A stretch of DNA of 64,000 bases from contig OY969556.1 in the NCBI GenBank assembly GCA_963701015.1, positions 3,628,424-3,692,423 of the forward strand, in the 5' to 3' direction. The stretch's first letter is position 1; each line of letters begins with the position of its first letter. The notes beneath the pieces were generated by a model that was not told the DNA's origin, made no database searches, and saw only the letters and a list, made by a program, of their open reading frames with translations. Shown in pieces: positions 3,397 to 41,454 of this stretch. The position numbers and the translations under genes were made by a program. The stretch comes from an uncultured Bacteroidota bacterium. GTDB lineage: Bacteria > Bacteroidota > Bacteroidia > Bacteroidales > DTGW01.

Positions 3397-4050
3397 ATGA
3401 TAGATTTAATTAAGTATCTGATTGATTTTGTTTTGAACATTGATAAACATTTATTTGATATTGTTTCGAATTATAATACATGGACCTATTTAATTCTTTT
3501 TGCTATAATATTTTGTGAAACTGGTTTGGTTGTTACACCATTTTTACCTGGAGATTCATTACTTTTTGCAGCCGGGGCGATAGCTGCTGCAGGACTTTTA
3601 AATGTTGCAACTTTAATTTTTATAATTTTAATTGCAGCTGTACTTGGTGATAATTCAAATTATTTTATCGGCCGTTTTCTGGGACATAGAGTTTACGAAA
3701 AGAACTATCGGTTAATAAACAGAAAATCGCTTGATAAAACCCATAAATTTTACGAAAAACATGGAGGTAAAACTATTATAATAGCAAGGTTTATGCCCAT
3801 TATACGAACCTTCGCCCCATTTGTCGCCGGTGTTGGCACAATGAAATATCCACGTTTTTTTCTATTTAGTTTAGGTGGAAATATTTTATGGGTAAATTTG
3901 TTTATAGTTGCTGGTTATATGTTCGCCAACAACAATTTTGTAAAACATAATTTTTCAGTTGTAATAATTGCTATAATTGTGGTTTCTTTAATCCCTCCGG
4001 TTTATACATTTTTAAAACATTGGTTCGAATCACGAAAAGTAAAAAATTAA
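3397..4050 (+). CDS. dedA: DedA/VTT-family inner-membrane protein
   Basis: 217 aa, multi-TM. DedA signature stretches LPGDSLLFAAGAIAA, LGDNSNYFIGRFLG, HGGKTIIIARFMPIIRTFAPFVAGVG. Confidence 0.85.
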   Translation: MIDLIKYLIDFVLNIDKHLFDIVSNYNTWTYLILFAIIFCETGLVVTPFLPGDSLLFAAGAIAAAGLLNVATLIFIILIAAVLGDNSNYFIGRFLGHRVYEKNYRLINRKSLDKTHKFYEKHGGKTIIIARFMPIIRTFAPFVAGVGTMKYPRFFLFSLGGNILWVNLFIVAGYMFANNNFVKHNFSVVIIAIIVVSLIPPVYTFLKHWFESRKVKN

Positions 4051-4809: not shown

Positions 4810-4904
4810 AATTGGTTATTAGGTATTAGGTGTTAAAATCGTTTAATAAAATATAAATATTTTCATTGTTTCAATTCGTTTAAACTTTTTAAATCGTTAA
4901 TTGT

Positions 4905-6089
4905 TTAAAAGCTATATTTCAACCTGAAATAAACCATATTTAAATTCAATTCCTGGTTATTTATTTTACCGCCAAATTTTTGAGCAATAAGCGATGCATC
5001 GAGGTTTTGCGAAAGTGAATAGGTAAGTGAAGGTCCAATATAAAAACCTTTTATACCGGGCAAAAACATTCCGGCCAAACTTCCGGTCAATAGTGGTGTT
5101 ATAGGATAACTTGCCTGCATCAATATATTATGTTTAACAAACGAAAGGTTCTTAACGGTCAATGGCGCACTATATAGCGATTCAAATGAAAAAGTTTCTG
5201 GATATTTCGCACCATCATATAGATATTCGGCCAACAACGAAAATGAATTCCCAAATGTATAATTAAAAGAAATTGAAGCCAATAAAACCCCTGTAGTATC
5301 ACTAAACTTTTTCTCAGGCTGAAAATAACTGATTTCGCCTCTGAAAGCTAAACTTTGAATTGCACCACTCCAACCAAAACCAGCTACATAATCAGTTTGA
5401 TTAAGTGTCCCTGCCAAAAACTGAAAATCGTAATCGAAAGCATTGAACTTATATAAGGCTGCAGCAGTAACTTGTTTGTCGCGGTTCATTTTCACGGCCA
5501 GTTCAGTAGATGAAACTTCTGAATTATAATATTGAAGCCTCAACGCATCACTCCCGGGACGCTCGACATAATCAACATCGAAAAACGAATATGCATTAAA
5601 AATGTCGTTTGGATTCCATACCAAAGTTTGTCCCCAATTTATACGCTGCCGCCCCAGCGTTGCATGAAATTTTCCTTTTTCATAAGCTGCCCATAACCTA
5701 TCAATTGTTGAATTTAAAACATATGAATTACCATCAGCCATGTTTTTGGTCAAATCCATAAACCCATTATCAGTTGCAAAACTTGCTGCGGTTGCAGAAT
5801 TGTTTGTAACATTTTCTTCCATGGATAAACGGTTGCGCATTTCTAAAGCCATAGTTAAACCTTCAGTCGGAAAGAATTTAAAATTTAAACGATTATGGAT
5901 AAGGTCACTAATTGTCCATTGCTTGTTAATACTATCAAACATGGCGCTTTGCATATCACTGGTATAACCACCGATTGTAAATTTATCACTTTTATCCTGG
6001 GCATTTATAATAGTAAAATTTAATGCTAGAATTATCAAAATAAGCAAATGTGCCGATTTGCTAATTATATATTTAATTTTGTTTCTCAT
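4905..6089 (-). CDS. Putative outer-membrane beta-barrel (porin-like) protein, last gene of the ABC/LolA-like locus
   Basis: 394 aa with a signal peptide. Alternating beta-strand-like pattern and a C-terminal ...YFRLKYSF with terminal aromatic residue, as in OM barrels. Confidence 0.55.
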   Translation of the reverse strand: MRNKIKYIISKSAHLLILIILALNFTIINAQDKSDKFTIGGYTSDMQSAMFDSINKQWTISDLIHNRLNFKFFPTEGLTMALEMRNRLSMEENVTNNSATAASFATDNGFMDLTKNMADGNSYVLNSTIDRLWAAYEKGKFHATLGRQRINWGQTLVWNPNDIFNAYSFFDVDYVERPGSDALRLQYYNSEVSSTELAVKMNRDKQVTAAALYKFNAFDYDFQFLAGTLNQTDYVAGFGWSGAIQSLAFRGEISYFQPEKKFSDTTGVLLASISFNYTFGNSFSLLAEYLYDGAKYPETFSFESLYSAPLTVKNLSFVKHNILMQASYPITPLLTGSLAGMFLPGIKGFYIGPSLTYSLSQNLDASLIAQKFGGKINNQELNLNMVYFRLKYSF

Positions 6090-6123
6090 AGTAGAATATA
6101 CAAATAAATTATTTGATATTTTT

Positions 6124-6168
6124 CATTATCACATTGAATAATTAGCATATTGAATCATTATCTAATTA
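6124..6168 (-). repeat. Word-repeat spacer S1: three tandem ~16-nt units that begin on the stop codon of the ABC ATPase gene
   Basis: Plus strand reads CATTATCACATTGAAT|AATTAGCATATTGAAT|CATTATCTAATTA. The final TTA is the reverse-complement stop of 6166..6867. Confidence 0.7.
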
Positions 6169-6867
6169 TTTAGTTTCATCCGTTGAGACCTTCCCATCTA
6201 CAAGCGTTATAACACGCCTGGCTTTTTTCACAACCCTGGGATCATGGGTTGAAAATATAAAAGTAATATTTTCATCAATGTTGAGCTTTTCCATTATATC
6301 TAACAGTTTTTCTGCCGATTTTGAATCAAGGTTTGCCGTAGGTTCGTCAGCAAGAATAAACTTTGGTCGCGATGCCAACGCGCGTGCAACCGCGACCCTT
6401 TGTTGTTGACCGCCAGAAAGCTTTGCCGGACGACTGTTCATTCTATCTCCCAATCCAACTGCTTTAAGTAATTCAGCACTGCGTTCTTCCTTTTCTTTTT
6501 TCGGCCAGTTTTGCAAAAACATAATAAACTCAACATTTTCGCGTGCTGTTAAAACCGGAATAAGGTTATACGACTGAAATACAAATCCAATATTATGCAT
6601 TCTGAAATCAATTAATTTAGAACTTTTCAAAGCACCAATATTTACACTGTCAATTTTAATTTCACCAGAAGTTGGGAAATCAATCCCACCAACCATATTC
6701 AAAAATGTGGTTTTGCCTGAACCAGAAGGACCCACGACTGCTGTAAATTCGCCTTGCTCAAACGAAATATTCAGATTTTCCAAAGCAATTACTTCGTTGC
6801 CATTTTCATGGTAAACCTTTGTTAATGAATTGGTTTCAATTATTTTATTTTCTTTAGCTGTTTCCAT
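6166..6867 (-). CDS. ABC transporter ATP-binding protein (MacB/LolD-like)
   Basis: Walker A GPSGSGKTT, ABC signature LSGGQQQRV, Walker B FILADEPT. Confidence 0.95.
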   Translation of the reverse strand: METAKENKIIETNSLTKVYHENGNEVIALENLNISFEQGEFTAVVGPSGSGKTTFLNMVGGIDFPTSGEIKIDSVNIGALKSSKLIDFRMHNIGFVFQSYNLIPVLTARENVEFIMFLQNWPKKEKEERSAELLKAVGLGDRMNSRPAKLSGGQQQRVAVARALASRPKFILADEPTANLDSKSAEKLLDIMEKLNIDENITFIFSTHDPRVVKKARRVITLVDGKVSTDETK

Positions 6868-6889
6868 TATTATTATTTTTTAATTGACT

Positions 6890-6934
6890 CATTAGCACAT
6901 TAACAAATTAGCACATTGTTTCATTAGCTCATTA
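6890..6934 (-). repeat. Word-repeat spacer S2, paralogous to S1, beginning on the stop codon of the FtsX permease gene
   Basis: Plus strand reads CATTAGCACATTAACA|AATTAGCACATTGTTT|CATTAGCTCATTA. The final TTA is the reverse-complement stop of 6932..8233. Confidence 0.7.
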
Positions 6935-8233
6935 TAACTTTCTTATAGCTTCCGACGGGTTTAATTTTAATGCCTTTCGGGCAGGAACAACCGCTGATAT
7001 AACACCTGCAATAATTACCATAATTACAATTTTGATATAAACATTAATATCGATATATGGATAAACCATAGAATTAAATCCAAAGCCTGCCATTCCTGAT
7101 TCAAACATAGATAAGTCGATTCCATGTTTGCCAAAATAGCTAACCAGCAACCACGACAAAAACATCCCTACTGCTGAACCTGTTAACATTAACAAAATAG
7201 TCTCAAGCATAATCATTGAGAAAATTCTTAGCCGGTTCATTCCTATTGCCATTAACATTCCAATTTCACGAACCCTTTCCAATACTGCCATTAACATGGT
7301 ATTTATAATTCCAAAGCTTAGAGCTAAGAAAATAATACTCATAAAAATATACAATAAATAATTCATCATACCATTCATTAAATCAAGTTCAGGCATAATT
7401 TCCTTCCACGATTCAATGCTTAATTGGGAATTGTTGAATTTATTTTTTAATGTTGAAATTAGTGCGACACTCTTGTTATCATCATAAACCGAAATGGCAA
7501 TTTCATGCGCGGTTTGCCTTGAAACCCCTATAAGTTGAGCTAAATCAGACTTACGGACAAAAACACTCATTCCGTCGAAAGTTGAATTGCTTGTTTTAAA
7601 AATTCCTATAACTTTAAAAGCCGCAGTGGTAATATTTCCTGAAATGGATTGCATTGTAATAACTACCTTCGAATGTAACTTCAATTTCAGTTTTTCTGCA
7701 ATTTTTTCACCTATTAATATGCCGTTTTTCCTGTTATCTGTAAAATAATCCCCTTTTTTTATAAATTGATATATACCGGTTACTTGTTTTTCCTTTTGTG
7801 GATCAATGCCATTGAGCATAATTCCCTGACCTCCATTTGCTGAATTGATCATACAAACTAATTTTAAGCGCACTGTATAAGCCTTAATTTCACTACAAGT
7901 ATCCAGTGTTGAAATAATTTCAGGCATATCGAAAATGGTGTCGTTTATTTCTTTGTTGCCTTTAAACAGTGAATTATGAATTTGAATATTTGACACTTCA
8001 TTTCCAATAGCCATCTGTAAACGCTGAATAATCATCCCGTTCATGAACGAAGTGAACCCAACTCCGCCAATTACACCAAATACTATAGCAAATATTATAA
8101 TCAGGCTCCGGCTTTTATTCCGCCAAATATTTTTCCAGGACAGGGATAATAAGCCCCACCAGGCCTCCCCAAAGGGGAGGAGTTTAAGACCATGCTTAAT
8201 GGTTGGATTATTCATGTTATTTTGTGCTATCAT
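6932..8233 (-). CDS. ABC transporter permease, MacB-like periplasmic domain plus FtsX domain
   Basis: 433 aa with WKNIWRNKSRS N-terminal motif, a TM helix, a large periplasmic domain and a C-terminal 3-TM FtsX region. The N-terminal ~25 residues are encoded by a GC-rich hairpin element, so the true start is uncertain. Confidence 0.85.
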   Translation of the reverse strand: MIAQNNMNNPTIKHGLKLLPFGEAWWGLLSLSWKNIWRNKSRSLIIIFAIVFGVIGGVGFTSFMNGMIIQRLQMAIGNEVSNIQIHNSLFKGNKEINDTIFDMPEIISTLDTCSEIKAYTVRLKLVCMINSANGGQGIMLNGIDPQKEKQVTGIYQFIKKGDYFTDNRKNGILIGEKIAEKLKLKLHSKVVITMQSISGNITTAAFKVIGIFKTSNSTFDGMSVFVRKSDLAQLIGVSRQTAHEIAISVYDDNKSVALISTLKNKFNNSQLSIESWKEIMPELDLMNGMMNYLLYIFMSIIFLALSFGIINTMLMAVLERVREIGMLMAIGMNRLRIFSMIMLETILLMLTGSAVGMFLSWLLVSYFGKHGIDLSMFESGMAGFGFNSMVYPYIDINVYIKIVIMVIIAGVISAVVPARKALKLNPSEAIRKL

Positions 8234-8285
8234 AAATTTTTTATTTTTATTTACCCTACCTGACGGGGAAGGTCGGGTGGGGCTT
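8151..8285 (-). repeat. GC-rich structured element spanning the junction of the two permease genes
   Basis: AAGCCCCACC (8151-8160) is the exact reverse complement of GGTGGGGCTT (8276-8285). Inner hairpins are CCTCCCC-AAA-GGGGAGG (8164-8180) and CCCTACCT...AGGTCGGG (8254-8277, 7 of 8 pairs). It stands out against the AT-rich background. Confidence 0.6.
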
Positions 8286-8287
8286 TC

Positions 8288-9502
8288 TTATCTTCTCATT
8301 GCCTTTGTTATATCTAATTTATACAATGAATATAATGGAAACAGGAACACAATAATAATTATAGCAAATACAATATATACCTGTTGTATAATATAATCAA
8401 ACTGCCATGCTGTAGGTAAAATAGGTTCTAAGCCAAATGTTGAATAAGTATTCGCCATACTGGCAGACATACTTATAGGATGAAAATGAAAATAAGCAAC
8501 AATCGGAAGGCTAAACAGAAAACCAAAAAATAAACCCAGCAGACATATAAATATAAGTTCCATTGAAACCATTGAAACAAGTCTATGACGTTTCATCCCA
8601 ACAGTCATCATTATTCCAAACTCGTGTTGCCGTTCTGCTATCATCATTAAAACCGTTCCAAACACACCAAAGCCAACAATGAGGTATAACAATAAAATTA
8701 ATATCATGCTGCTACCCTGCTTGCTTATATATATCTGATAAAGTTCTACCAGCATTTCTTTCCACGACATTACTTCGAAATGATTAGGACCAATAACCTT
8801 ATTAATTTTCGAAACTATTTTATCCATATCTTGTGGATTGTTTAAATCAACTACCATTGAAGTAATCCTTCCCGGAGCTGAATAATAATCCTGGGCGACA
8901 GGAAGTGGCATAAAAACCATCTGGTTATCATACTCCGGTGCCGGAAGTTTCACAATGCCTATAATTCTATATATGCCATTGGCTCCCATGCCTTGATAAC
9001 CTTGACTTAGCAATACAATAGAATCATTTGTTTTCAGGTTAAGATATTTTGAAAGTCTTTCAGATAAAATTACGCCAGTGTCTATAAGGCTGAAATACCT
9101 GCCTGCCACAATTCTTTTGTCTAAGCCTGTAAATTCTTTTTCCAATAATGGATTAACCCCAACAGTAATAACACCTTTCGTTTTTTCACCGGTTGATGCT
9201 AGTGAAAACGATTCGAGGCGAGGAATTAACCCTTTAACCTGAGGAATTGATTTTATCTTTAGAAACGTGGGGTTGTCAGCAGCCATGCTGTAATCGAAGG
9301 TTTTATTGTCCCAGTATCCTTTATCATGAACCTGAACATAACCTGTATAGGAATGAAGAACACCATCAATAAGATTCAGCCACACACCCAGATTAAAGCC
9401 GCGCATTAAAATAGAAAAGAAAACAGCAAAAAATACCGAAGCCATTGTTATTAATGTTCGGCGCTTGTTCCGCCATAAGTTTCGCCAGGCTAATTTTATC
9501 AT
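8288..9502 (-). CDS. ABC transporter permease, MacB-like periplasmic domain plus FtsX domain
   Basis: Probable ATG at 9502 (MIKLAWRNLWRNKRRT...); the ORF track extends to a GTG at 9523. Same architecture as the neighbouring permease. Confidence 0.85.
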   Translation of the reverse strand: MIKLAWRNLWRNKRRTLITMASVFFAVFFSILMRGFNLGVWLNLIDGVLHSYTGYVQVHDKGYWDNKTFDYSMAADNPTFLKIKSIPQVKGLIPRLESFSLASTGEKTKGVITVGVNPLLEKEFTGLDKRIVAGRYFSLIDTGVILSERLSKYLNLKTNDSIVLLSQGYQGMGANGIYRIIGIVKLPAPEYDNQMVFMPLPVAQDYYSAPGRITSMVVDLNNPQDMDKIVSKINKVIGPNHFEVMSWKEMLVELYQIYISKQGSSMILILLLYLIVGFGVFGTVLMMIAERQHEFGIMMTVGMKRHRLVSMVSMELIFICLLGLFFGFLFSLPIVAYFHFHPISMSASMANTYSTFGLEPILPTAWQFDYIIQQVYIVFAIIIIVFLFPLYSLYKLDITKAMRR

Positions 9503-9541
9503 AGTAATTAGTGATTTGTGCACAGTGCTAAGTAAACCGTG

Positions 9542-9910
9542 CTATTTTTTAGACTTATAGTAATTTATTGTCCCGTTTATTAGTTTTTTACATTCAGTTA
9601 TAATCTCCAGCAATTCGTTCAATTCAGATTCATTAATGTATGTTTGATCAAAAGAAAGGTAAAGCTGTGTTTCCAATTCATATAATGAACCACGTGAGTA
9701 ATTGAGAAATTGAATTGTTTCATTTTTCTGCAACCGTCCAATTCCCTCTGCAATATTTGATGGGACAGAAACACATGATCTTCTCATTTGATTGGTCAAA
9801 CTATATATTTCTTCCTTTGGAAATTTTTTGGTAACGTTATACAACTTATTTACCAACAACCTGGATTTTTTCCAGACATCCATTTCAATATATGATTTAC
9901 TATTATCCAT
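9542..9910 (-). CDS. Four-helix-bundle protein (23S rRNA intervening-sequence protein family)
   Basis: 122 aa with family hallmarks LTNQMRRSCVSVPSNIAEG and SLYELETQL. Same strand as the host operon and wedged between its genes. Confidence 0.85.
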   Translation of the reverse strand: MDNSKSYIEMDVWKKSRLLVNKLYNVTKKFPKEEIYSLTNQMRRSCVSVPSNIAEGIGRLQKNETIQFLNYSRGSLYELETQLYLSFDQTYINESELNELLEIITECKKLINGTINYYKSKK

Positions 9911-9981
9911 TGCTATAATTATATTTTAAGATTTCTAAACTAAGTGCTCAGCACTAAGCACTATATTCTAGGCACTATACA

Positions 9982-10731
9982 CTACCTAATCTTCTTCATA
10001 TTTTGCTGTGAAAAGAAATCATCGCCAATAGGTTTGTTAAATATGGCTTTGTCAAAATCGACAATTGTTTTATTGCCCGGCTTATCTGCTGGAATAATTT
10101 CGAAATGTGATGGAATTTCCCTATCGCCCATTAACTTGATTTTAGAAGCTGATTCAGTCTTTACAAGTTGTGAATCTTCATCATAATATTCAGTTTTCAT
10201 TTGAAAATATCCTTTTTTGCTTATCCATTTTATTAGCGAACCCCAAACAATTGCTGCGTTTTCTTTGGGCACAAGTTTAATTTTGTAACATTCTTCGCCA
10301 TTGCACATTTCACTTCCAATTAAAGTCTGGTCATAATCGTCAACAATGGAAGCTGCTTTGAGTAAATCGTCATTTGTAAAATCTGAACCCATCCAGCCTT
10401 GCGACATCATTGATGGCGGTAATTTTATCATTCGCTGGATATTCGGCATCCAGTTCCATATTTCATTTTTGCGTTTCAAAAATGCCTGACCTTTTTCTTT
10501 GGCAGGTTCTGTTATTACAGCCAAACTATACTCACTTCCTTTTGCCCATGAATGAAATGCAATGGTACGTTCCCAGGTTGGGCGTACTATGCTCATTCGC
10601 ATATAACTTTCGTTGGTTTGACCCTGCATCAGGTCGTTAGCTTTTTTAACAATTTCTTTGGCCGATGGTTGTTGCGAAAAAGCTGCTATTGCTAAAAAAA
10701 TCAGGATGGATGAGATTTTCAAAAATTTCAT
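9982..10731 (-). CDS. LolA-like outer-membrane lipoprotein-sorting protein
   Basis: 249 aa with a signal peptide. The sequence pattern (...RMSIVRPTWERTIAFHSWAKG...FLKRKNEIWNWMPNIQRMIKLPPSMMSQGWMGSDFTNDDL...) matches the LolA_like family that usually accompanies FtsX/ABC pairs. Confidence 0.7.
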   Translation of the reverse strand: MKFLKISSILIFLAIAAFSQQPSAKEIVKKANDLMQGQTNESYMRMSIVRPTWERTIAFHSWAKGSEYSLAVITEPAKEKGQAFLKRKNEIWNWMPNIQRMIKLPPSMMSQGWMGSDFTNDDLLKAASIVDDYDQTLIGSEMCNGEECYKIKLVPKENAAIVWGSLIKWISKKGYFQMKTEYYDEDSQLVKTESASKIKLMGDREIPSHFEIIPADKPGNKTIVDFDKAIFNKPIGDDFFSQQNMKKIR

Positions 10732-10751
10732 AACTATATATTTTTCAATAA

Positions 10752-11243
10752 TTACTTAAAATGCACATATCCAAATAAAATTACACTCCAAAAACAAATA
10801 ATAATTGCCAACCCTATTAAAAGTACAATCATGTTTTTAATCCTGTAGCGGATTGAAATGATTAATTCTTTTGTTTTCTTATTTATATAGAAATGGCTAA
10901 TGGCCAAAAGGTTTATTATTATTGCCAATAACGGTAATACTAAAAATACCAAAGGAATAAGCCATAACAAATAAGTTTCATGGTCAGTTTTAGCCATTAT
11001 GTTTTGAAAAGTAGCAGGGAAATCGATACTTAAAAAGAAATGTAGCTTTAAGTAAATGACAAGAACCACTAAGGCTGGTACAAGAATAAAAATAGTCCCG
11101 ATCCGTGATGATTTCCGCGCACTCATAATACTTATTTTCATCATTTCCTGATGCTTTACAAAATCCGTTTCGGGGGCATCCAGGTTCTCCATTTTTTGTT
11201 CAAAATCGTTTTTCATAGCATTGAATTTTATTCTATAATGCAA
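10752..11243 (-). CDS. Multi-pass membrane protein downstream of the ECF sigma gene (possible anti-sigma partner)
   Basis: 163 aa: a cytoplasmic N-terminus followed by about 4 TM helices, 8 nt after the sigma gene. No recognisable zinc anti-sigma motif. Confidence 0.4.
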   Translation of the reverse strand: MHYRIKFNAMKNDFEQKMENLDAPETDFVKHQEMMKISIMSARKSSRIGTIFILVPALVVLVIYLKLHFFLSIDFPATFQNIMAKTDHETYLLWLIPLVFLVLPLLAIIINLLAISHFYINKKTKELIISIRYRIKNMIVLLIGLAIIICFWSVILFGYVHFK

Positions 11244-11251
11244 AAAATAAA

Positions 11252-11824
11252 TTAGGTTGCACTTTCAAATAAAATTTTGAGTTTTTCGAGCCCTCTTGAA
11301 ACAAGTGACTTTATTGTACCTTCTTTTTTATTAAGAATTTCAGCAATTTCAAGAATTGATTTTTTTTCAAAATAACGTAGAGCAATCACTTCCTGATATT
11401 TAATATCCATCTTTTTCAGACATTGCTGTACTTTCGCAAAATCTTCATCCATCTGCATTTCCTTTTCCAGCAATTGTTTTTCGCTTTGCGATTCTTCAAA
11501 ATCAATAAATTTTTCAGCCGGTATTGAGGAAATATCCTGTAAAAATTTTGCTGTTTTATTTTTCCGGTAATAATAATTTACTTCGTTCGTGGCAATGCGG
11601 TAAAGCCATGTAAGAACTGAAATATCTTTCCACACAAACGACTCGATTTTCAAGTATGCCTTTAAAAAAGTATCAGCGGCAATGTCGCGTGAAATATCAT
11701 AGTCGCCTATACGTTTGAAAATATAATTAAATATACTTTTATAATAGGCATCAAATAATTTCCCAAATAACTCGGGATTATTTTTAATTTGCTTCACCAG
11801 TTGTTTTTCTACTGCCAGTTCCAT
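11252..11824 (-). CDS. ECF-type RNA polymerase sigma-70 family factor
   Basis: 190 aa. Region 2-like (DIAADTFLKAYLKIESF, WLYRIATNEV) and region 4-like (VIALRYFEKKSILEIAEILNKKEGTIKSLVSRGLEKLK) segments. Confidence 0.85.
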   Translation of the reverse strand: MELAVEKQLVKQIKNNPELFGKLFDAYYKSIFNYIFKRIGDYDISRDIAADTFLKAYLKIESFVWKDISVLTWLYRIATNEVNYYYRKNKTAKFLQDISSIPAEKFIDFEESQSEKQLLEKEMQMDEDFAKVQQCLKKMDIKYQEVIALRYFEKKSILEIAEILNKKEGTIKSLVSRGLEKLKILFESAT

Positions 11825-11848
11825 CTAATTCAATTTGATAATGTGCTG

Positions 11849-11903
11849 ATTTGCTAATTTAAAAATTAACGCCCTATTACTTATTCCTTTTAAATTAGCA
11901 AAT
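11849..11903 (-). repeat. Hairpin spacer between tetR and the sigma gene, built from facing word units
   Basis: ATTTGCTAATTT (11849-11860) is the exact reverse complement of AAATTAGCAAAT (11892-11903), with a 31-nt loop. Outer GCTGA/TCAGC extension with a bulge. Confidence 0.6.
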
Positions 11904-11926
11904 TGGCATATTAAATAATCAGCAAA

Positions 11927-12529
11927 TTAATATATTGGTTTTTCAAGTCCTTTCAAAATTTTATCAACTATTTTTTCATCATCAAAATTTGGTGTAGATT
12001 GTATTATATTGATCATTAAACCATCCATAACCGAATTGGTATGAATGGCATCGGCTTTGGGATTTTTTGAACCATTCTTTTTATAATATTTTTCCAATAA
12101 ATCGAATTGCGAAATCATCATATTTTTATAATCCTTGTAAATAATTTCAGTGACTCCCGGTTGAAAAGCCAATGCAAAATACAATCTCCAAAAGTGTAAA
12201 TTGCTCCTCATGATTTCGAAAACTTTTTTAAAGATTTTACGAAATTGGATTGAAGTAAGCATCTCATCAGAAAGGCCTTTATCTAAAAGCTCATTAAATA
12301 TGTCGAAAAAATCTTTGAAACCATGATTTATGACAGCCTTTAAAAGTTCTTCCTTACTTTCGAAATAATTGTAGAGCAAACCTTTGGCAATTCCGGCATG
12401 TTGGGCTATCATACTTATGGACGCACCATGATAACCATAAGTTGCAAAAATCTCCAAAGCAGTTTCGAGGATCAACTCCCTTTTTTCCTGCTTTATTTCT
12501 TCAAATTGTACTTTCGTTTTTGGAGACAT
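11927..12529 (-). CDS. TetR/AcrR-family transcriptional regulator
   Basis: 200 aa with an N-terminal HTH (ALEIFATYGYHGASISMIAQHAGIAKGLLYNYFESKEEL). Confidence 0.9.
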   Translation of the reverse strand: MSPKTKVQFEEIKQEKRELILETALEIFATYGYHGASISMIAQHAGIAKGLLYNYFESKEELLKAVINHGFKDFFDIFNELLDKGLSDEMLTSIQFRKIFKKVFEIMRSNLHFWRLYFALAFQPGVTEIIYKDYKNMMISQFDLLEKYYKKNGSKNPKADAIHTNSVMDGLMINIIQSTPNFDDEKIVDKILKGLEKPIY

Positions 12530-12584
12530 ACTTTATTTAAATTTTAGAACCATGAATCAAGAACCAAGAAAATTAGTTAATTTT

Positions 12585-12606
12585 TTTGACTGAACGTTCG
12601 GTCAAA
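12585..12606. promoter_or_regulatory. 22-bp near-perfect palindrome, candidate TetR operator
   Basis: TTTGACTGAACGTTCGGTCAAA. Half-sites match 8 of 9 around a central AACGTT, 56-77 nt upstream of the tetR start. Confidence 0.5.
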
Positions 12607-12610
12607 GATA
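12603..12610 (-). promoter_or_regulatory. -7 promoter box TATCTTTG for the tetR-led operon, overlapping the palindrome
   Basis: The reverse complement of CAAAGATA matches TAnnTTTG and shares 4 nt with the operator half-site. Confidence 0.45.
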
Positions 12611-16130: not shown

Positions 16131-16201
16131 TTGACCTACCAGGATTCGAACCTGGACTGACAGAACCAAAATCTGCTGTGCTACCGTTACACAATAGGTC
16201 A
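16131..16201 (-). tRNA. tRNA-Gln (anticodon TTG)
   Basis: Minus strand reads TGACCTA-TT-GTGT-AACGGTA-GCAC-A-GCAGA-TTTTGGT-TCTGT-CAGTC-CAGGT-TCGAATC-CTGGT... closing with TAGGTCA-A. This gives a cloverleaf with a 7-bp acceptor stem, a GTTCGAATC T-loop and TTG in the anticodon loop. Confidence 0.9.
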
Positions 16202-16428: not shown

Positions 16429-16959
16429 ATGTCAGGGAAACTAAAATCAATATTTAATCTGAAACTATTACTAATCACATGTTTAATGTGGACTTTTATT
16501 GGAAAATGTTTTAGCCAGGATGAAAAGTTTAAAGCGCTTTTCATTTATAATTTTACAAAATATATTGAATGGCCATCAATTCCATCGAATGATTTTAAAA
16601 TTGCTGTTCTTGGAAATACAACCCTATTAAAAGAATTAGAAGGTGTTGCATTAAAAATGAAAGTTGGACAACATCCCATAGTTGTTACTTCAGCAAATAC
16701 ATCAGCTGATATTAACGATTGCCAAATAGTTTTCATTTCGCAAAATAAAATTGCCCAACTTACCAACACGGTCACTTTAGCGAAAATTAAAAATATTCTT
16801 GTAATAACGGATTCTCCAAATTCATCCGAACATGGGTCGGCCATCAATTTTGTGTCAAAAAATGGCAGTCTTAAGTTTGAAATATCCAAATCAAATATTG
16901 AAAGTGAAGGACTGAAAGTAAATTCTAGTCTTTTATTATTAGGCATTGAAGTTAAATAG
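16429..16959 (+). CDS. YfiR-like periplasmic protein (DUF4154 family)
   Basis: 176 aa with a signal peptide. Pattern FKALFIYNFTKYIEWPS...FKIAVLG...ILVITD is typical of DUF4154/YfiR. Overlaps the start region of the downstream receptor gene. Confidence 0.6.
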   Translation: MSGKLKSIFNLKLLLITCLMWTFIGKCFSQDEKFKALFIYNFTKYIEWPSIPSNDFKIAVLGNTTLLKELEGVALKMKVGQHPIVVTSANTSADINDCQIVFISQNKIAQLTNTVTLAKIKNILVITDSPNSSEHGSAINFVSKNGSLKFEISKSNIESEGLKVNSSLLLLGIEVK

Positions 16960-16984
16960 TTTAATTTTTCTTAAAAATAATTTT

Positions 16985-19048
16985 ATGAACCGCTTGATAC
17001 TATTCTGTTTAATTGTTTCCCTTTTATCTGTAAATTATATAAGTATTTCTGCTCAGGAAAAGAAAAGTCAAATTGAATCGATGACAAGGGATGAAATTTT
17101 ACAAATGAGCACCGATCAGCTTTTAGCTTTACCATTTGAAGATTTACTTACATTGGCCAATAAACTAGGTGTTAGTATAGATGAATTACTAAAAATGCAA
17201 ACAGCAGTGGCATCAAAAACTGAATTAACTACACGCGAAACGCCAGGAATTGTTTCAATTGTTACATCTGAAGAAATTAGAAACTCAGGGGCACGCGATA
17301 TAATAGATGTATTAAAACTTGTTCCGGGATTCGATTTTGAATATGATGTGGATGGAGTGATTGGTGTAGGTTTTCGTGGAAGTTGGGTGCATGAAGGCAA
17401 AGCTCTTATATTATTAGACGGGCAAATGATGAATGATTTGGTTTATTATAATACCCCTTTTGGAAATCATTTTGATGTTACTCAAATTAAAAAAATTGAA
17501 ATTGTACGCGGCCCCGGTTCTGCAATTTATGGCGGAAATGCCGAATTGTGTGTAATTAACATTATTACAAAAAGTGGTAAGGATATAAATGGAGTTGCGG
17601 TTTCTGCAACTTATGGTCAGTTGCCCGATAATTTTGGCCGAATAAATGAAAGTGTAATGGCAGGTGCAAAAGAAGGTAAATGGGATTTTGCCTTAAAAAC
17701 TTTTATAGGTGATGCTAATAGAAGTAATAGTAAATACGCAACGAATCCAGATTCAGGTAACCAACCTTATATTCAGAATTTTGCGAAAAGTGGAAGTAAA
17801 ATTGAAACTCAAAATATAAACCTGTCTGCTAAAAGAGAAGATTTATCATTTCAATTTATTTATGATAATTATAATTCTCAAACATTAGCTGATACAGCAT
17901 TAACAATGAATAATTTTAAAAATATTGCTTCATCATTAAAATATGATATTAAAATCAACGATAAGTTTACGCTTACTCCACTTTTAAGCTACCAATACAG
18001 TCATCCATATAATGATACTAATCTTTCGTCGCGCGATTATGTTGTGCAACGCTATAAAGGAGGAATTTCAATGAATTATGATGCTTCAGCAAATATAAAT
18101 ATTATTGGAGGTGCTGAGTTTTATACTGATAATGGTAAAATTACTGACAATATTTTCGGTTCGCATAATTTACAACTAAACAACCTGGCCTTATATCTGC
18201 AAGGTTTATGGAAAGTAAATCACTTTAATATAGTTTTAGGAGGCCGGGCTGAAAATAATAATATATATGGAAGTGCTTTTGTACCTCGATTTGGTATTAC
18301 AAGGGTAATAAACAATTTTCACTTTAAAATCCTTGCAAGCGAAGCATTTCGTTCGCCATCAGTTGGTAATATTGATGTTAGTGATAATTTAAAAGTTGAA
18401 AAAACTACAGTTATAGAAGCGGAAGTTGGTTACAAAATTAATGACAATATGTTTATAACCGGCAATATATATGATATATCAATTAAAAATCCTATCGTTT
18501 ACTACGATGATGGTAACCAGTCAGCAATTCCGATAACAGACTGGGGTTATACAAATGCTTCAAAACAAGGTAGCGATGGTATTGAGCTAGAATATAGGTA
18601 CAAATATACTTGGGGATTTTCTACAATAAATTATTCATATTATACTGATAAATGGAAATCAATTCCTGATTATTATCAGGCTGAAGGGCACCCAAATGAT
18701 ATTCTCGGCTTTCCACAAAACAAATTAACTTTATTAAGTAGCTTTAATTTAAGCAATAATATCTATTTAACACCTTCATTTGTATATTCCAGCTCACGAT
18801 TTGGGTATATACAGGATGCAGAATGGAATACTGTAGTAAAGGAATATTCACCTTCATTTATTTTAAACCTCAACTTATCATTCAACAATGTGCTAACAAA
18901 AGGTTTAAATCTTGATTTGGGAGCTTTTAATATTTTAAATGACAAATCAGAATATATTCAGCCATATAATGGAGGATATCCACCTTATCCTGGCAGAGAA
19001 AGGGAAATAGTTGCACGTTTATCTTATAATTTTAAGTTAAATCAATAA
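16985..19048 (+). CDS. TonB-dependent outer-membrane receptor
   Basis: Probable ATG 16985 (MNRLILFCLIVSLLSV...; the track start at 16946 overlaps the upstream gene). Plug-like region (TTRETPGIVSIVTSEEIRNSGARDIIDVLKLVPG, IEIVRGPGSAIYGGNA) followed by a long beta-barrel region. Confidence 0.85.
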   Translation: MNRLILFCLIVSLLSVNYISISAQEKKSQIESMTRDEILQMSTDQLLALPFEDLLTLANKLGVSIDELLKMQTAVASKTELTTRETPGIVSIVTSEEIRNSGARDIIDVLKLVPGFDFEYDVDGVIGVGFRGSWVHEGKALILLDGQMMNDLVYYNTPFGNHFDVTQIKKIEIVRGPGSAIYGGNAELCVINIITKSGKDINGVAVSATYGQLPDNFGRINESVMAGAKEGKWDFALKTFIGDANRSNSKYATNPDSGNQPYIQNFAKSGSKIETQNINLSAKREDLSFQFIYDNYNSQTLADTALTMNNFKNIASSLKYDIKINDKFTLTPLLSYQYSHPYNDTNLSSRDYVVQRYKGGISMNYDASANINIIGGAEFYTDNGKITDNIFGSHNLQLNNLALYLQGLWKVNHFNIVLGGRAENNNIYGSAFVPRFGITRVINNFHFKILASEAFRSPSVGNIDVSDNLKVEKTTVIEAEVGYKINDNMFITGNIYDISIKNPIVYYDDGNQSAIPITDWGYTNASKQGSDGIELEYRYKYTWGFSTINYSYYTDKWKSIPDYYQAEGHPNDILGFPQNKLTLLSSFNLSNNIYLTPSFVYSSSRFGYIQDAEWNTVVKEYSPSFILNLNLSFNNVLTKGLNLDLGAFNILNDKSEYIQPYNGGYPPYPGREREIVARLSYNFKLNQ

Positions 19049-33778: not shown

Positions 33779-34199
33779 AATAAAGAACAAGGAACAAAGA
33801 TGCACAATTTTCGAAATTTACATATTTGGGATAAAGCCAGGTTAATTGTAAAAGAAAGCTATCAATTAACAGATAAATTTCCTCAAACTGAAATTTGGGG
33901 ACTTACAAATCAAATTCGAAGAGCATCTATATCAGTGTCCTCCAATATTGCAGAAGGTTCTGGTAAAAGTTCTAACAAAGATTTTACCCGTTTTCTCGAA
34001 ATAGCTATTTCTTCTTGTTTTGAATTAGAAACTCAATTTATTCTTGCATTTGATTTAGGATATATTTTGGAAACCGAAATGTCAGGCATTTGTAATTCAT
34101 TACAAGAAGAACTAAAAATGATATATAATTTTATTCAAACATTACAAATAAAAAATTAAGTGAACATTCTTTACTCTTTGTTCCTTGTTCTTTATTCTA
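33776..34199 (+). repeat. IVS-like cassette: a perfect 25-bp inverted repeat bracketing the four-helix-bundle gene
   Basis: TAGAATAAAGAACAAGGAACAAAGA (33776-33800) is the exact reverse complement of TCTTTGTTCCTTGTTCTTTATTCTA (34175-34199). Confidence 0.9.
33800..34159 (+). CDS. Four-helix-bundle protein (23S rRNA intervening-sequence protein family)
   Basis: 119 aa with LTNQIRRASISVSSNIAEG and CFELETQF hallmarks. Paralog of 9542..9910. Confidence 0.85.
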   Translation: MHNFRNLHIWDKARLIVKESYQLTDKFPQTEIWGLTNQIRRASISVSSNIAEGSGKSSNKDFTRFLEIAISSCFELETQFILAFDLGYILETEMSGICNSLQEELKMIYNFIQTLQIKN

Positions 34200-41257: not shown

Positions 41258-41312
41258 AATGTGCTAATTTGTCAATGATTCAATATGTCTTTAGCTAATG
41301 TGCCAATTAGTC
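41258..41312 (+). repeat. Word-repeat spacer following the His-rich ORF stop
   Basis: AATGTGCTAATTTGTC|AATGATTCAATATGTC|TTTAGCTAATGTGCC|AATTAGTC. Same core (AATGTGCTAAT) as spacers S1/S2 read in gene sense. Confidence 0.6.
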
Positions 41313-41425
41313 TATTATTCAATAATTCAATTTCATAGGTTAGCAGAAATATTTAATAGTTTCCTTTTGGGGGATATTCATTCAATGTACATTTATAAAT
41401 ATTCTTTTACATTATTTAATAGACA

Positions 41426-41454
41426 CATTTGCACATTGAATCATTAGCGAATTA
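41426..41454 (-). repeat. Word-repeat spacer starting on the purN stop codon
   Basis: Plus strand CATTTGCACATTGAAT|CATTAGCGAATTA, with the final TTA being the purN stop. Collinear with the last two units of S1/S2. Confidence 0.6.

Follow-up and report, generated by a model that had tools for sequence, protein, structure and literature searches.

A TetR-headed operon of an uncultured Bacteroidales bacterium and a possible carrier-mediated export route to a dedicated outer-membrane barrel

Here we describe an operon of an uncultured Bacteroidota bacterium (Bacteroidales; DTGW01) whose conserved genes may well encode a Lol-like route that can be induced and that uses a carrier to export a hydrophobic or amphiphilic cargo by way of a dedicated barrel in the outer membrane; we give this reading a probability of about 0.55. 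The operon lies in a window of 64,000 nucleotides (contig OY969556.1 of assembly GCA_963701015.1, positions 3,628,424 to 3,692,423 of the forward strand), to which the window coordinates below refer. Nine open reading frames (ORFs) on the minus strand (4905-12529), separated by gaps of 20-102 bp, form the co-directional series that a sequence-only reading of the same DNA had noted. Its treatment of the nine genes as one unit did not hold: the conserved module consists of a TetR-family repressor gene (tetR) and five core genes, which encode a LolA_like protein (PF17131), two FtsX/MacB-type permeases, an ATP-binding cassette (ABC) ATPase and the barrel. A pair of genes for a sigma factor and a membrane protein, and a four-helix-bundle gene, were added in particular lineages. 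Cooperation of the five core proteins is a much firmer conclusion than either the direction of transport or the cargo.

The genes are, from the upstream end of the operon:

11927-12529, minus strand: TetR-family repressor gene, the first gene of the operon (PF00440, TetR_N; E = 2e-17, 63 bits, cut-off 24)
11252-11824, minus strand: extracytoplasmic function (ECF) sigma factor gene, part 1 of an accessory cassette (Sigma70_r2, PF04542, and Sigma70_r4_2, PF08281)
10752-11216, minus strand: gene for a membrane protein, most likely of 154 amino acids (aa), with three transmembrane segments; part 2 of the accessory cassette and candidate anti-sigma factor (homolog lengths, hydropathy)
9982-10731, minus strand: soluble periplasmic LolA-fold carrier gene (LolA_like / TP_0789-like; PF17131, E = 3e-53)
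9542-9910, minus strand: four-helix-bundle gene (23S_rRNA_IVP family; PF05635, E = 1e-38)
8288-9523, minus strand: permease 1 gene (MacB_PCD and FtsX, four transmembrane segments; Pfam and hydropathy), likely start 9502
6932-8233, minus strand: permease 2 gene, paralog of permease 1 (MacB_PCD and FtsX, four transmembrane segments; Pfam and hydropathy), start 8233 or 8215
6166-6867, minus strand: ABC ATPase gene (PF00005, E = 6e-34)
4905-6089, minus strand: gene of the dedicated 18-strand barrel, 394 aa (AlphaFold model; sub-threshold DUF1302 match)

Pfam and NCBIfam profile searches on the nine proteins agreed with the parts list of the sequence-only reading (tetR, ECF sigma factor, membrane protein, LolA-like protein, permeases, ATPase and barrel), and an AlphaFold model of the last protein agreed with the barrel.

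Loci compared

About 170 related loci were compared in total. The nine window proteins were mapped onto a barrel-seeded set of 80 loci (one genome per species), nearly all from metagenome-assembled genomes of Bacteroidales, with Aquimarina hainanensis in addition. Linkage was counted from the barrel in the 63 loci that had at least 4.8 kb upstream of it. A carrier-seeded set was drawn from metagenome contigs, 25 loci of which had enough DNA. Loci from other phyla were obtained by a protein search of plasmid and secondary-replicon records for barrel homologs. Individual loci are cited by L numbers.

The conserved module

The genes of the module are linked far beyond chance. LolA_like, permease and ATPase genes lay upstream of the barrel on the same strand in 60/63 barrel-seeded loci, and both permeases were present in 59. 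The partners stood downstream of the barrel instead in 2/63 loci: L047 had LolA_like, both permeases and the ATPase there, an order shared by the incomplete locus L049, and L031 had only LolA_like before the contig end. The contig of the last of the 63 loci, L011, stops 267 bp past the barrel. Counted from the carrier, the barrel was present in 23/25 LolA-seeded loci (21 downstream, 2 upstream). A tetR homolog directly preceded LolA_like in 41/62 loci and in 19/33 lineages. The sequence-only reading had staked its proposal on the co-occurrence of these genes in other genomes; they do co-occur, in both seeded sets and also in Vibrio, Ralstonia and Burkholderia.

Clustering of the ORFs of the 80 barrel-seeded loci yielded, within the operon span, no genes beyond those of the module except for a PEMT-like gene in some loci. 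The absence of LolB, membrane-fusion protein and TolC that had been remarked for the window thus recurs across the set, since no such gene appeared inside the operon in these clusters. No BNR/Ycf48-like beta-propeller was found in the window operon or among the conserved clusters, and no biosynthetic or catabolic genes were conserved beside the core in the same 80 loci.

The core was also found in other phyla. Vibrio campbellii LJC015 (NZ_CP050465.1, about 1,359,280-1,364,520) encodes LolA_like, permease, permease, ATPase and barrel in the order of the window, with 30-56% identity. In Ralstonia pickettii (plasmid pRp12D0, N5B55_RS24805 to RS24790) and Burkholderia thailandensis (p1, JMY07_RS30470 to RS30455) both permeases are fused into one protein of ~830 aa, which is encoded together with LolA_like, the ATPase and the barrel in overlapping reading frames; a UbiB-family kinase gene follows. 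A plasmid of Haliovirga abyssi (Fusobacteriota) carries genes for TetR, an MMPL pump of the resistance-nodulation-division (RND) type and LolA_like, then a ferredoxin gene and then a barrel homolog. A second, adjoining set in Haliovirga comprises a DUF1302 protein of 412 aa, another MMPL pump and a further LolA_like protein, the last of which scores above the cut-off for DUF1329 as well (41.1 bits; cut-off 23.1). Carrier and barrel thus travel together, paired with an ABC system in some loci and with an MMPL pump in Haliovirga, and the motor in the inner membrane is interchangeable.

Several loci depart from this plan or extend it. L007, L009, L082 and L126 have three permease genes rather than two. 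A gene for a flavodoxin plus 4Fe-4S ('EFR1-like') ferredoxin adjoins LolA_like in two unrelated loci (L136, 7107-7901; L093, 6963-7739); it stands between tetR and LolA_like in L136, where there is no barrel within 8 kb, and between LolA_like and the barrel homolog in Haliovirga. In 27 loci (among L012-L076; 4/33 lineages) the gene directly after the barrel, in most cases at a distance of 34-48 bp, encodes a membrane methyltransferase of the PEMT/ICMT type. ICMT-family genes, the UbiB-family kinase gene and VTT/DedA genes occur near the cassette in Ralstonia and Burkholderia (L091, 1-400; L092, 16949-16978). The methyltransferase, UbiB and DedA neighbours may hint at an isoprenoid or lipid cargo.

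Components of the putative transporter

The carrier starts with a signal peptide that lacks a lipobox cysteine, and it contains an invariant loop, W113-M-G-S-D..N-D-D. It is homologous to the structures 3BUU, 4Z48, 9TP6 and 3BK5 of the Protein Data Bank (PDB), none of which has been functionally characterised; the literature found on TP0789 amounted to a proteome list. Even at an E-value limit of 5 the carrier matched PF17131 only, with no match listed to the canonical LolA family, and it gave no match to DUF1329. The Vibrio parahaemolyticus protein 3BK5 was considered as the cassette's own carrier and rejected, being only a distant member of the family (E = 6e-11).

Both permeases carry the features of type VII ABC systems. 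They pass the cut-offs of PF12704 (MacB_PCD; 52.4 and 44.7 bits, cut-off 27) and PF02687 (FtsX; 48.9 and 61.5 bits, cut-off 25.5), and a hydropathy scan gave each four hydrophobic segments with a loop of ~220 aa after the first. The closest solved relatives are LolF, LolE and MacB for permease 1 and LolF, YtrF and LolC for permease 2, and the LolC/LolE equivalog TIGR02212 was missed by both (89.7 and 107.1 bits, cut-off 362.45). The motifs of the ATPase are intact: a motif scan found Walker A (GPSGSGKT), the signature (LSGGQ) and the H-switch (TH), and Walker B (FILADE), which the strict scan pattern missed, was read by eye. The ATPase is most similar to LolD, with a score for TIGR02211 (226.8 bits) below the cut-off of 307.75. 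The gap between the two permease genes (8254-8282) holds a GC-rich hairpin (dG -13.1 kcal/mol, z -3.1) in an otherwise AT-rich locus.

The 394-aa protein at the end of the operon was modelled by AlphaFold as an 18-strand beta-barrel (mean predicted local distance difference test score 78.6); it has a signal peptide and the C-terminal residues YSF, with a terminal aromatic. The sequence-only reading had called it a porin-like barrel. The barrel itself stands, as a member of a large family without annotation (>6,000 homologs) and not as a generic porin. The check by profile and Foldseek searches that had been suggested for it and for the membrane protein gave a sub-threshold match to DUF1302 for the barrel, and neither a family nor a matching fold for the membrane protein. 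Assignment of the barrel to a specific fold was dropped, because Foldseek returned from the PDB only generic 18-strand barrels (OprD/Occ, AlgE, MOMP; TM-scores 0.55-0.6). Among the members of the barrel family, 12/33 matched DUF1302 at E < 0.01 (best 1.4e-6), with only ~50 residues covered. What the barrel and DUF1302 have in common is a loop with the motif G-[RK]-Q-x-I-x-W-G-x5-N-P-x-D at residues 146-182, where conservation within the family is highest; counting of the modelled strands would make it the third extracellular loop. A barrel sequence of this motif is G-R-Q-R-I-N-W-G..N-P-N-D.

Probable control by TetR

An operator-like palindrome was found ahead of the operon:

12585-12606: near-perfect 22-bp palindrome TTTGACCGAACGTTCAGTCAAA, ~60 nt upstream of the tetR ATG

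Its 18-nt core TGACTGAACGTTCAGTCA was searched with at most 3 mismatches in 1.31 Mb of related loci. This gave 42 matches, 41 of which lay between 117 bp upstream of and 34 bp inside an annotated tetR start; the 42nd (L077) lay 24 bp upstream of a tblastn match to tetR. The site was present in 34/43 tetR loci, some of which had two, and it was found upstream of LolA_like in 0/20 loci without tetR. The window contains a single match to the core (12587-12604). Such conservation is the signature expected of an autoregulated operator to which the repressor would bind. Since the palindrome is confined to tetR starts, the operon is presumably read from the tetR promoter and induced by a ligand, with the palindrome as candidate operator. 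Efflux systems are typically controlled in this way, by a TetR repressor whose operator lies at the promoter of the operon itself. The sequence-only reading had suggested inducible export of a lipidic or lipoprotein cargo; the conserved site speaks for inducibility, and the class of cargo is still conjecture.

Proposed function and its alternatives

We favour export because of the linkage of the core genes, the modularity of the motor, the analogy with AmeABCD-type systems, the palindrome at tetR starts and the features of the components. In the proposed route, a TetR-family repressor bound to the palindrome at the operon promoter would be released by a ligand. The two paralogous FtsX/MacB-type permeases would pair as a heterodimer, with two copies of the ABC ATPase supplying the energy, and this type VII ABC machine would extract cargo located in the periplasm or at the outer face of the inner membrane. 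The cargo would then be handed to the soluble LolA-fold protein, which would shuttle it to the DUF1302-like 18-strand barrel for release into or across the outer membrane. The gene content, the close linkage of the five core genes across phyla, the conserved operator-like site, the export signals of carrier and barrel and the exchange of the inner-membrane motor were observed; the physical hand-offs, the outward direction and the chemical nature of the cargo are inferred from them.

The closest parallel in partners is the AmeABCD type, in which a DUF1302 barrel, a DUF1329 protein with LolA fold, a BNR protein and an RND pump of the HAE3 type form a known genetic unit (PMC6394551; 10.1101/072470). 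Both systems have a LolA-fold protein, an outer-membrane barrel and a pump in the inner membrane, and the window carrier matches 3BUU, 4Z48 and 3BK5, the structures cited for that superfamily (PMC6394551). The window differs in its motor, which is a type VII ABC system and not an RND pump, in lacking the BNR/Ycf48-like beta-propeller, and in its barrel, which is ~390 aa long rather than ~600 aa and only marginal to the DUF1302 model. Deletion of ameABCD in Castellaniella defragrans lowered monoterpene tolerance and raised the accumulation of Nile Red (PMC6394551), and cofitness of the genes of such units was reported for Shewanella, Kangiella and Pseudomonas (10.1101/072470). A further parallel is an MMPL-LolA-like fusion of Thalassolituus, which was induced 42-fold on the C28 alkane, with a neighbouring porin-like protein made only on C28 (PMC6304351).

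MacAB-TolC is similar in its type VII ABC permease with a MacB periplasmic core, in its presumed outward direction and in a regulation typical of efflux. The operon differs from it in that ORF clustering of the 80 loci showed neither a membrane-fusion protein nor a TolC duct; in their place are a soluble carrier and a barrel of 18 strands, which resembles OprD/Occ, AlgE and MOMP and has no TolC fold.

Several observations weigh against export. The window barrel scored 22.0 bits for DUF1302 (PF06980), below the cut-off of 23.2, and its alignment by hhalign with the bona fide 412-aa DUF1302 protein was weak (probability 11%, E = 0.0027). With this profile comparison the barrel was not filed as a DUF1302 member; homology of the two is suggestive, and with such weak statistics the comparison with DUF1302 systems therefore rests on the shared partners. 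The barrel was missing in 2/25 LolA-seeded loci, one of which had also lost the ATPase, the other having a flavodoxin/ferredoxin gene instead. TetR control is not universal, as tetR was missing in about a third of the loci. DUF1302/DUF1329 mutants of Pseudomonas were defective on fatty esters, which their authors read as possible hydrolysis and not as export (10.1101/2020.07.04.188060). Finally, our literature search found no paper on an ABC-coupled member of the LolA-like/FtsX/ABC/outer-membrane cassette and no characterised example, consistent with the earlier remark that LolA_like/FtsX/ABC clusters have no established substrate.

Among the alternatives, a specialised route of lipid or lipoprotein biogenesis, with the barrel as an insertase in place of LolB rather than the end of a detoxification pump, survives best; we consider it unlikely, though worth keeping in view. 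The operon resembles the Lol pathway (LolCDE-LolA-LolB) in several respects: a pair of paralogous permeases of the FtsX/MacB type whose ATPase is a separate protein, a LolA-fold carrier that is soluble in the periplasm, no continuous duct between the membranes, permeases whose closest solved relatives include LolF, LolC and LolE, and an ATPase whose best score is to LolD. A comparable arrangement has been proposed computationally for Borrelia BBJ23-BBJ29, where a LolA-like protein and a MacB-like ABC system are encoded beside an outer-membrane barrel (PMC13078400). The Borrelia system differs from the window in its barrel, which is of the Omp85 family, in a permease proposed to act as a homodimer, in the presence of tetratricopeptide repeat (TPR) proteins and in the lack of any described TetR regulator. 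Flavobacterial LolA2/LolB2 sit in the flexirubin locus (PMC11885536), and the methyltransferase after the barrel in 27 loci, like the ICMT-family and UbiB genes near the cassette in Ralstonia and Burkholderia, would also suit biogenesis. The operon departs from the Lol pathway in its carrier, a PF17131 and not a LolA family member, and in its outer-membrane end, a beta-barrel and not the lipoprotein LolB. Against biogenesis, all Lol equivalog scores fell far short of their thresholds. The methyltransferase occurs in only 4/33 lineages, no biosynthetic genes are conserved beside the core, and TetR repression with a patchy distribution better suits an accessory, inducible function than a housekeeping one.

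Uptake of a hydrophobic nutrient, in which the barrel would admit the substrate, the LolA-fold protein carry it inwards and the ABC system deliver it to the inner membrane or energise the step, seems to us improbable. To our knowledge the characterised type VII ABC systems (MacB, LolCDE, FtsEX, YbbAP) and MMPL/HAE3 pumps act outwards or as mechanotransducers and not as importers, and a TetR repressor with an operator at its own promoter is, as said, typical of efflux. No catabolic genes are conserved beside the core. In favour of uptake, DUF1302/DUF1329 genes matter for growth of Pseudomonas putida on the fatty esters Tween 20 and butyl stearate (10.1101/2020.07.04.188060), and in the obligate alkane degrader Thalassolituus an MMPL-LolA-like fusion was induced 42-fold on the C28 alkane, with a neighbouring porin-like protein made only on C28 (PMC6304351).

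Type VII ABC systems operate by mechanotransmission, and their FtsX fold is common to FtsEX; a mechanotransducer through whose permeases no cargo passes, ATP serving to switch the LolA-fold partner or to gate the barrel as in FtsEX-EnvC, is nevertheless the least probable of the readings, because the partner has the fold of a hydrophobic-ligand carrier with no recognisable enzyme domain and because carrier and barrel also pair with MMPL pumps, which are transporters. YbbAP-TesA shows that a type VII ABC complex can act with a periplasmic partner (PMC12646458).

Lineage-specific additions

The ECF sigma factor has regions 2 and 4 only (TIGR02937, 83.3 bits, cut-off 42.9) and is 64-67% identical to the sigma factors that precede every homolog examined of the membrane protein. 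The latter had been described as a protein of 163 aa with four transmembrane segments, which was not borne out: it has three hydrophobic segments, and its start is most likely at 11216, as the homologs are 150-158 aa long. Its family is small (54 homologs, 144-158 aa) and has a conserved cytoplasmic N-terminus of ~40 aa. No Pfam or NCBIfam family matched it, and no fold was assigned, as the model had a predicted TM-score (pTM) of 0.35 and all Foldseek matches in the PDB had E >= 1.

The gene for the membrane protein directly followed the ECF sigma factor gene in 8/8 contexts. The pair stands between tetR and LolA_like, as in the window, in L082, L084, L086 and also L095, heads an ABC-2 type exporter in L083, L087 and L088, and stands alone in L085 and L089. 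A first reading of the 80 barrel-seeded loci, by which the pair was unique to the window, was rejected on finding the same arrangement in those four loci. By its gene contexts the pair is a portable accessory cassette of one sub-lineage.

A motif TGCAACCTTTT-N8-GTTGCATT with the inverted repeat TGCAAC/GTTGCA was found upstream of the sigma factor gene, once per locus, in 7/7 loci outside the window lineage, at these positions:

L082: 4108
L083: 9347
L084: 9344
L085: 5691
L087: 9347
L088: 9345
L089: 8654

It is plausibly an autoregulated ECF promoter, and we treat it as a candidate. No TGCAACCTTTT...GTTGCATT was found in the tetR-sigma gap of the window, in the whole 64 kb of the window or in the close relative L086. 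The place of the motif is taken in the window by another element:

11839-11913, minus strand: AU-rich inverted repeat with a 17-bp stem that fills the tetR-sigma gap (repeat search; RNA fold dG -23.8 kcal/mol, z -3.5)

No U tract follows the stem, and neither this hairpin nor the one between the permease genes was accepted as a terminator, since on the sense strand both lack a U tract after them. The sigma factor gene of the window probably depends on read-through from the tetR promoter. The double regulatory head of TetR and ECF sigma factor that had been proposed for the window is thus plausible for relatives such as L082 and L084, and not shown at the window itself, which lacks the motif kept in 7/7 relatives.

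A different ECF sigma factor gene (199 aa, 24-29% identical to that of the window), accompanied by a gene for a 376-aa anti-sigma-like protein, is divergent from tetR in 12/33 lineages. Together with the cassette of the window type, its occurrence means that a pairing of TetR with an ECF sigma factor recurs at the operon. The divergent gene lies within 100-560 bp of tetR in about a dozen loci (L014, L015, L017, L019, L024, L026, L036, L053, L070, L079 and others). Operons of the sigY-yxlCDEFG type of Bacillus subtilis combine an ECF sigma factor, small membrane proteins and an ABC exporter, and the cassette resembles them in heading ABC exporter operons, of the window type or of the ABC-2 type. 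It differs in phylum, in a membrane partner without a recognisable anti-sigma domain and, in the window, in its location downstream of tetR without a promoter motif of its own.

The sequence-only reading had called the four-helix-bundle gene an insert, and the comparison bears this out. The gene was missing from 79/80 barrel-seeded loci. A hidden Markov model (HMM) search of all reading frames of 160 loci (1.93 Mb) found 13 copies or remnants (12 without a duplicate contig), all of them in gaps of the transporter operon and co-oriented with it; none was found in ~1.24 Mb of flanking DNA. The cassettes were found at:

Window: 9542-9910 and 33818-34123
Other loci: L001, L007, L024, L055, L084, L086, L095, L096, L099, L101, L123 and L141

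Across the loci, each of the four gaps from LolA_like to the barrel is used, and the sequences fall into two types or more. Short tandem repeats in complementary arrays flank most of the cassettes, with duplex dG down to -43.5 kcal/mol, compared with a mean of -15.8 kcal/mol (standard deviation 5.8) for the flanks of 390 ordinary operon genes (Mann-Whitney p = 3.5e-6). The 70-nt flanks of the operon copy in the window pair at dG -28.0 kcal/mol, within the most stable 3% of this background. The second window copy (33818-34123) stands between the genes of two methylmalonyl-CoA mutase subunits and has the same architecture. Because of its absence from 79/80 loci, the complementary flanks and the confinement of the copies to gaps, we regard the four-helix-bundle gene as an inserted, stem-bracketed cassette and not as a part of the transporter; on this evidence of arrangement it is reminiscent of the intervening sequences of 23S rRNA. 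No literature on mobility of the 23S_rRNA_IVP family was found.

A second cassette appears to have been lost from the operon:

6844-6935, minus strand: scar of a lost second four-helix-bundle cassette, with tandem ATTAGCACATT units and ~9 codons fused to the ATPase start (comparison with L086)

L086, which is ~90% identical to the window in DNA, has a second four-helix-bundle cassette between permease 2 and the ATPase. The four-helix-bundle genes of L086 and L084 at this spot start with METQKENKIL / MENQKENKIL, and the ATPase starts with METAKENKII-ETNSL in the window, MKIIETN in L001 and MNIIETK in L086, which looks like a deletion that left a chimeric N-terminus on the ATPase. Copies of the unit ATTAGCACATT, which reads AATGTGCTAAT on the opposite strand, number 13 in the window compared with 3.3 expected, 7 of them in operon gaps and some in 16-bp tandem arrays (sites 6123-6169, 6873-6935, 11840-11930 and 41258-41437). 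The unit also builds the arms of the L084/L086 four-helix-bundle cassette, and the window copies may be leftover or solo cassette arms.

Surroundings of the operon

The neighbourhood is ordinary chromosome, with lpxC-fabZ, lpxA, a DedA protein, DUF218, coaD, fabF and RNase III; the DedA gene lies near the operon at 3397-4050. A gene for a YfiR-like periplasmic protein (114.1 bits; cut-off of the TOL_0243 family 125), followed by a TonB-dependent receptor gene, was found at 16429-19048. An Rfam scan of the window gave a tRNA at 16131-16201, just upstream of these two genes, as its sole match, and a scan for sigma-70 promoters gave 52 sites, compared with 51 expected from shuffled sequence. In L086 the barrel is separated from the DUF218 gene by an additional 1.6 kb (16874-18517, corresponding to window 4810-4904), which encodes a Por_Secre_tail (type IX secretion) protein. 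The name given by IMG to the L086 barrel ORF (a 442-aa call), 'REP element-mobilizing transposase RayT', looks like a misannotation.

Significance

Few routes are understood by which hydrophobic molecules cross the periplasm and outer membrane, namely TolC-duct pumps, Lol, Lpt, Mla and AsmA-like bridges. The cassette, which is widespread yet unstudied, suggests a further modular solution, in which a soluble carrier passes cargo to its own barrel and different motors can serve in the inner membrane. The combination of DUF1302 barrel and LolA-fold protein with an RND pump was already known; what would be new is a type VII ABC motor driving such a relay. We tentatively propose, at somewhat less than even odds, that the LolA-fold carrier and the DUF1302-type barrel are a general and portable relay from periplasm to outer membrane that serves a type VII ABC or an MMPL/HAE3 RND motor, and, as part of the same joint reading and with the same reserve, that four-helix-bundle genes, in stem-bracketed cassettes like 23S rRNA intervening sequences, insert repeatedly into gaps between co-transcribed genes.

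The question can be addressed experimentally, as the core genes are present in the cultured and tractable Vibrio campbellii, Ralstonia pickettii, Burkholderia thailandensis and Aquimarina hainanensis (KCTC 42423), and the defined operator-like sequence could be used in screens for TetR ligands, where the inducer would probably turn out to be the cargo or a substitute for it. The barrel family has thousands of unannotated members, and the related RND-coupled systems have terpene, fatty ester and alkane phenotypes without a mechanism. The identity of the substrate could be relevant to how Bacteroidota tolerate bile, fatty acids, solvents or antimicrobials. If the proposal is right, the relay would add a third kind of architecture, apart from TolC-duct pumps and the Lol/Lpt routes, by which hydrophobic cargo passes through the envelope of Gram-negative bacteria, and Bacteroidota, Proteobacteria and Fusobacteriota at the least would possess it.

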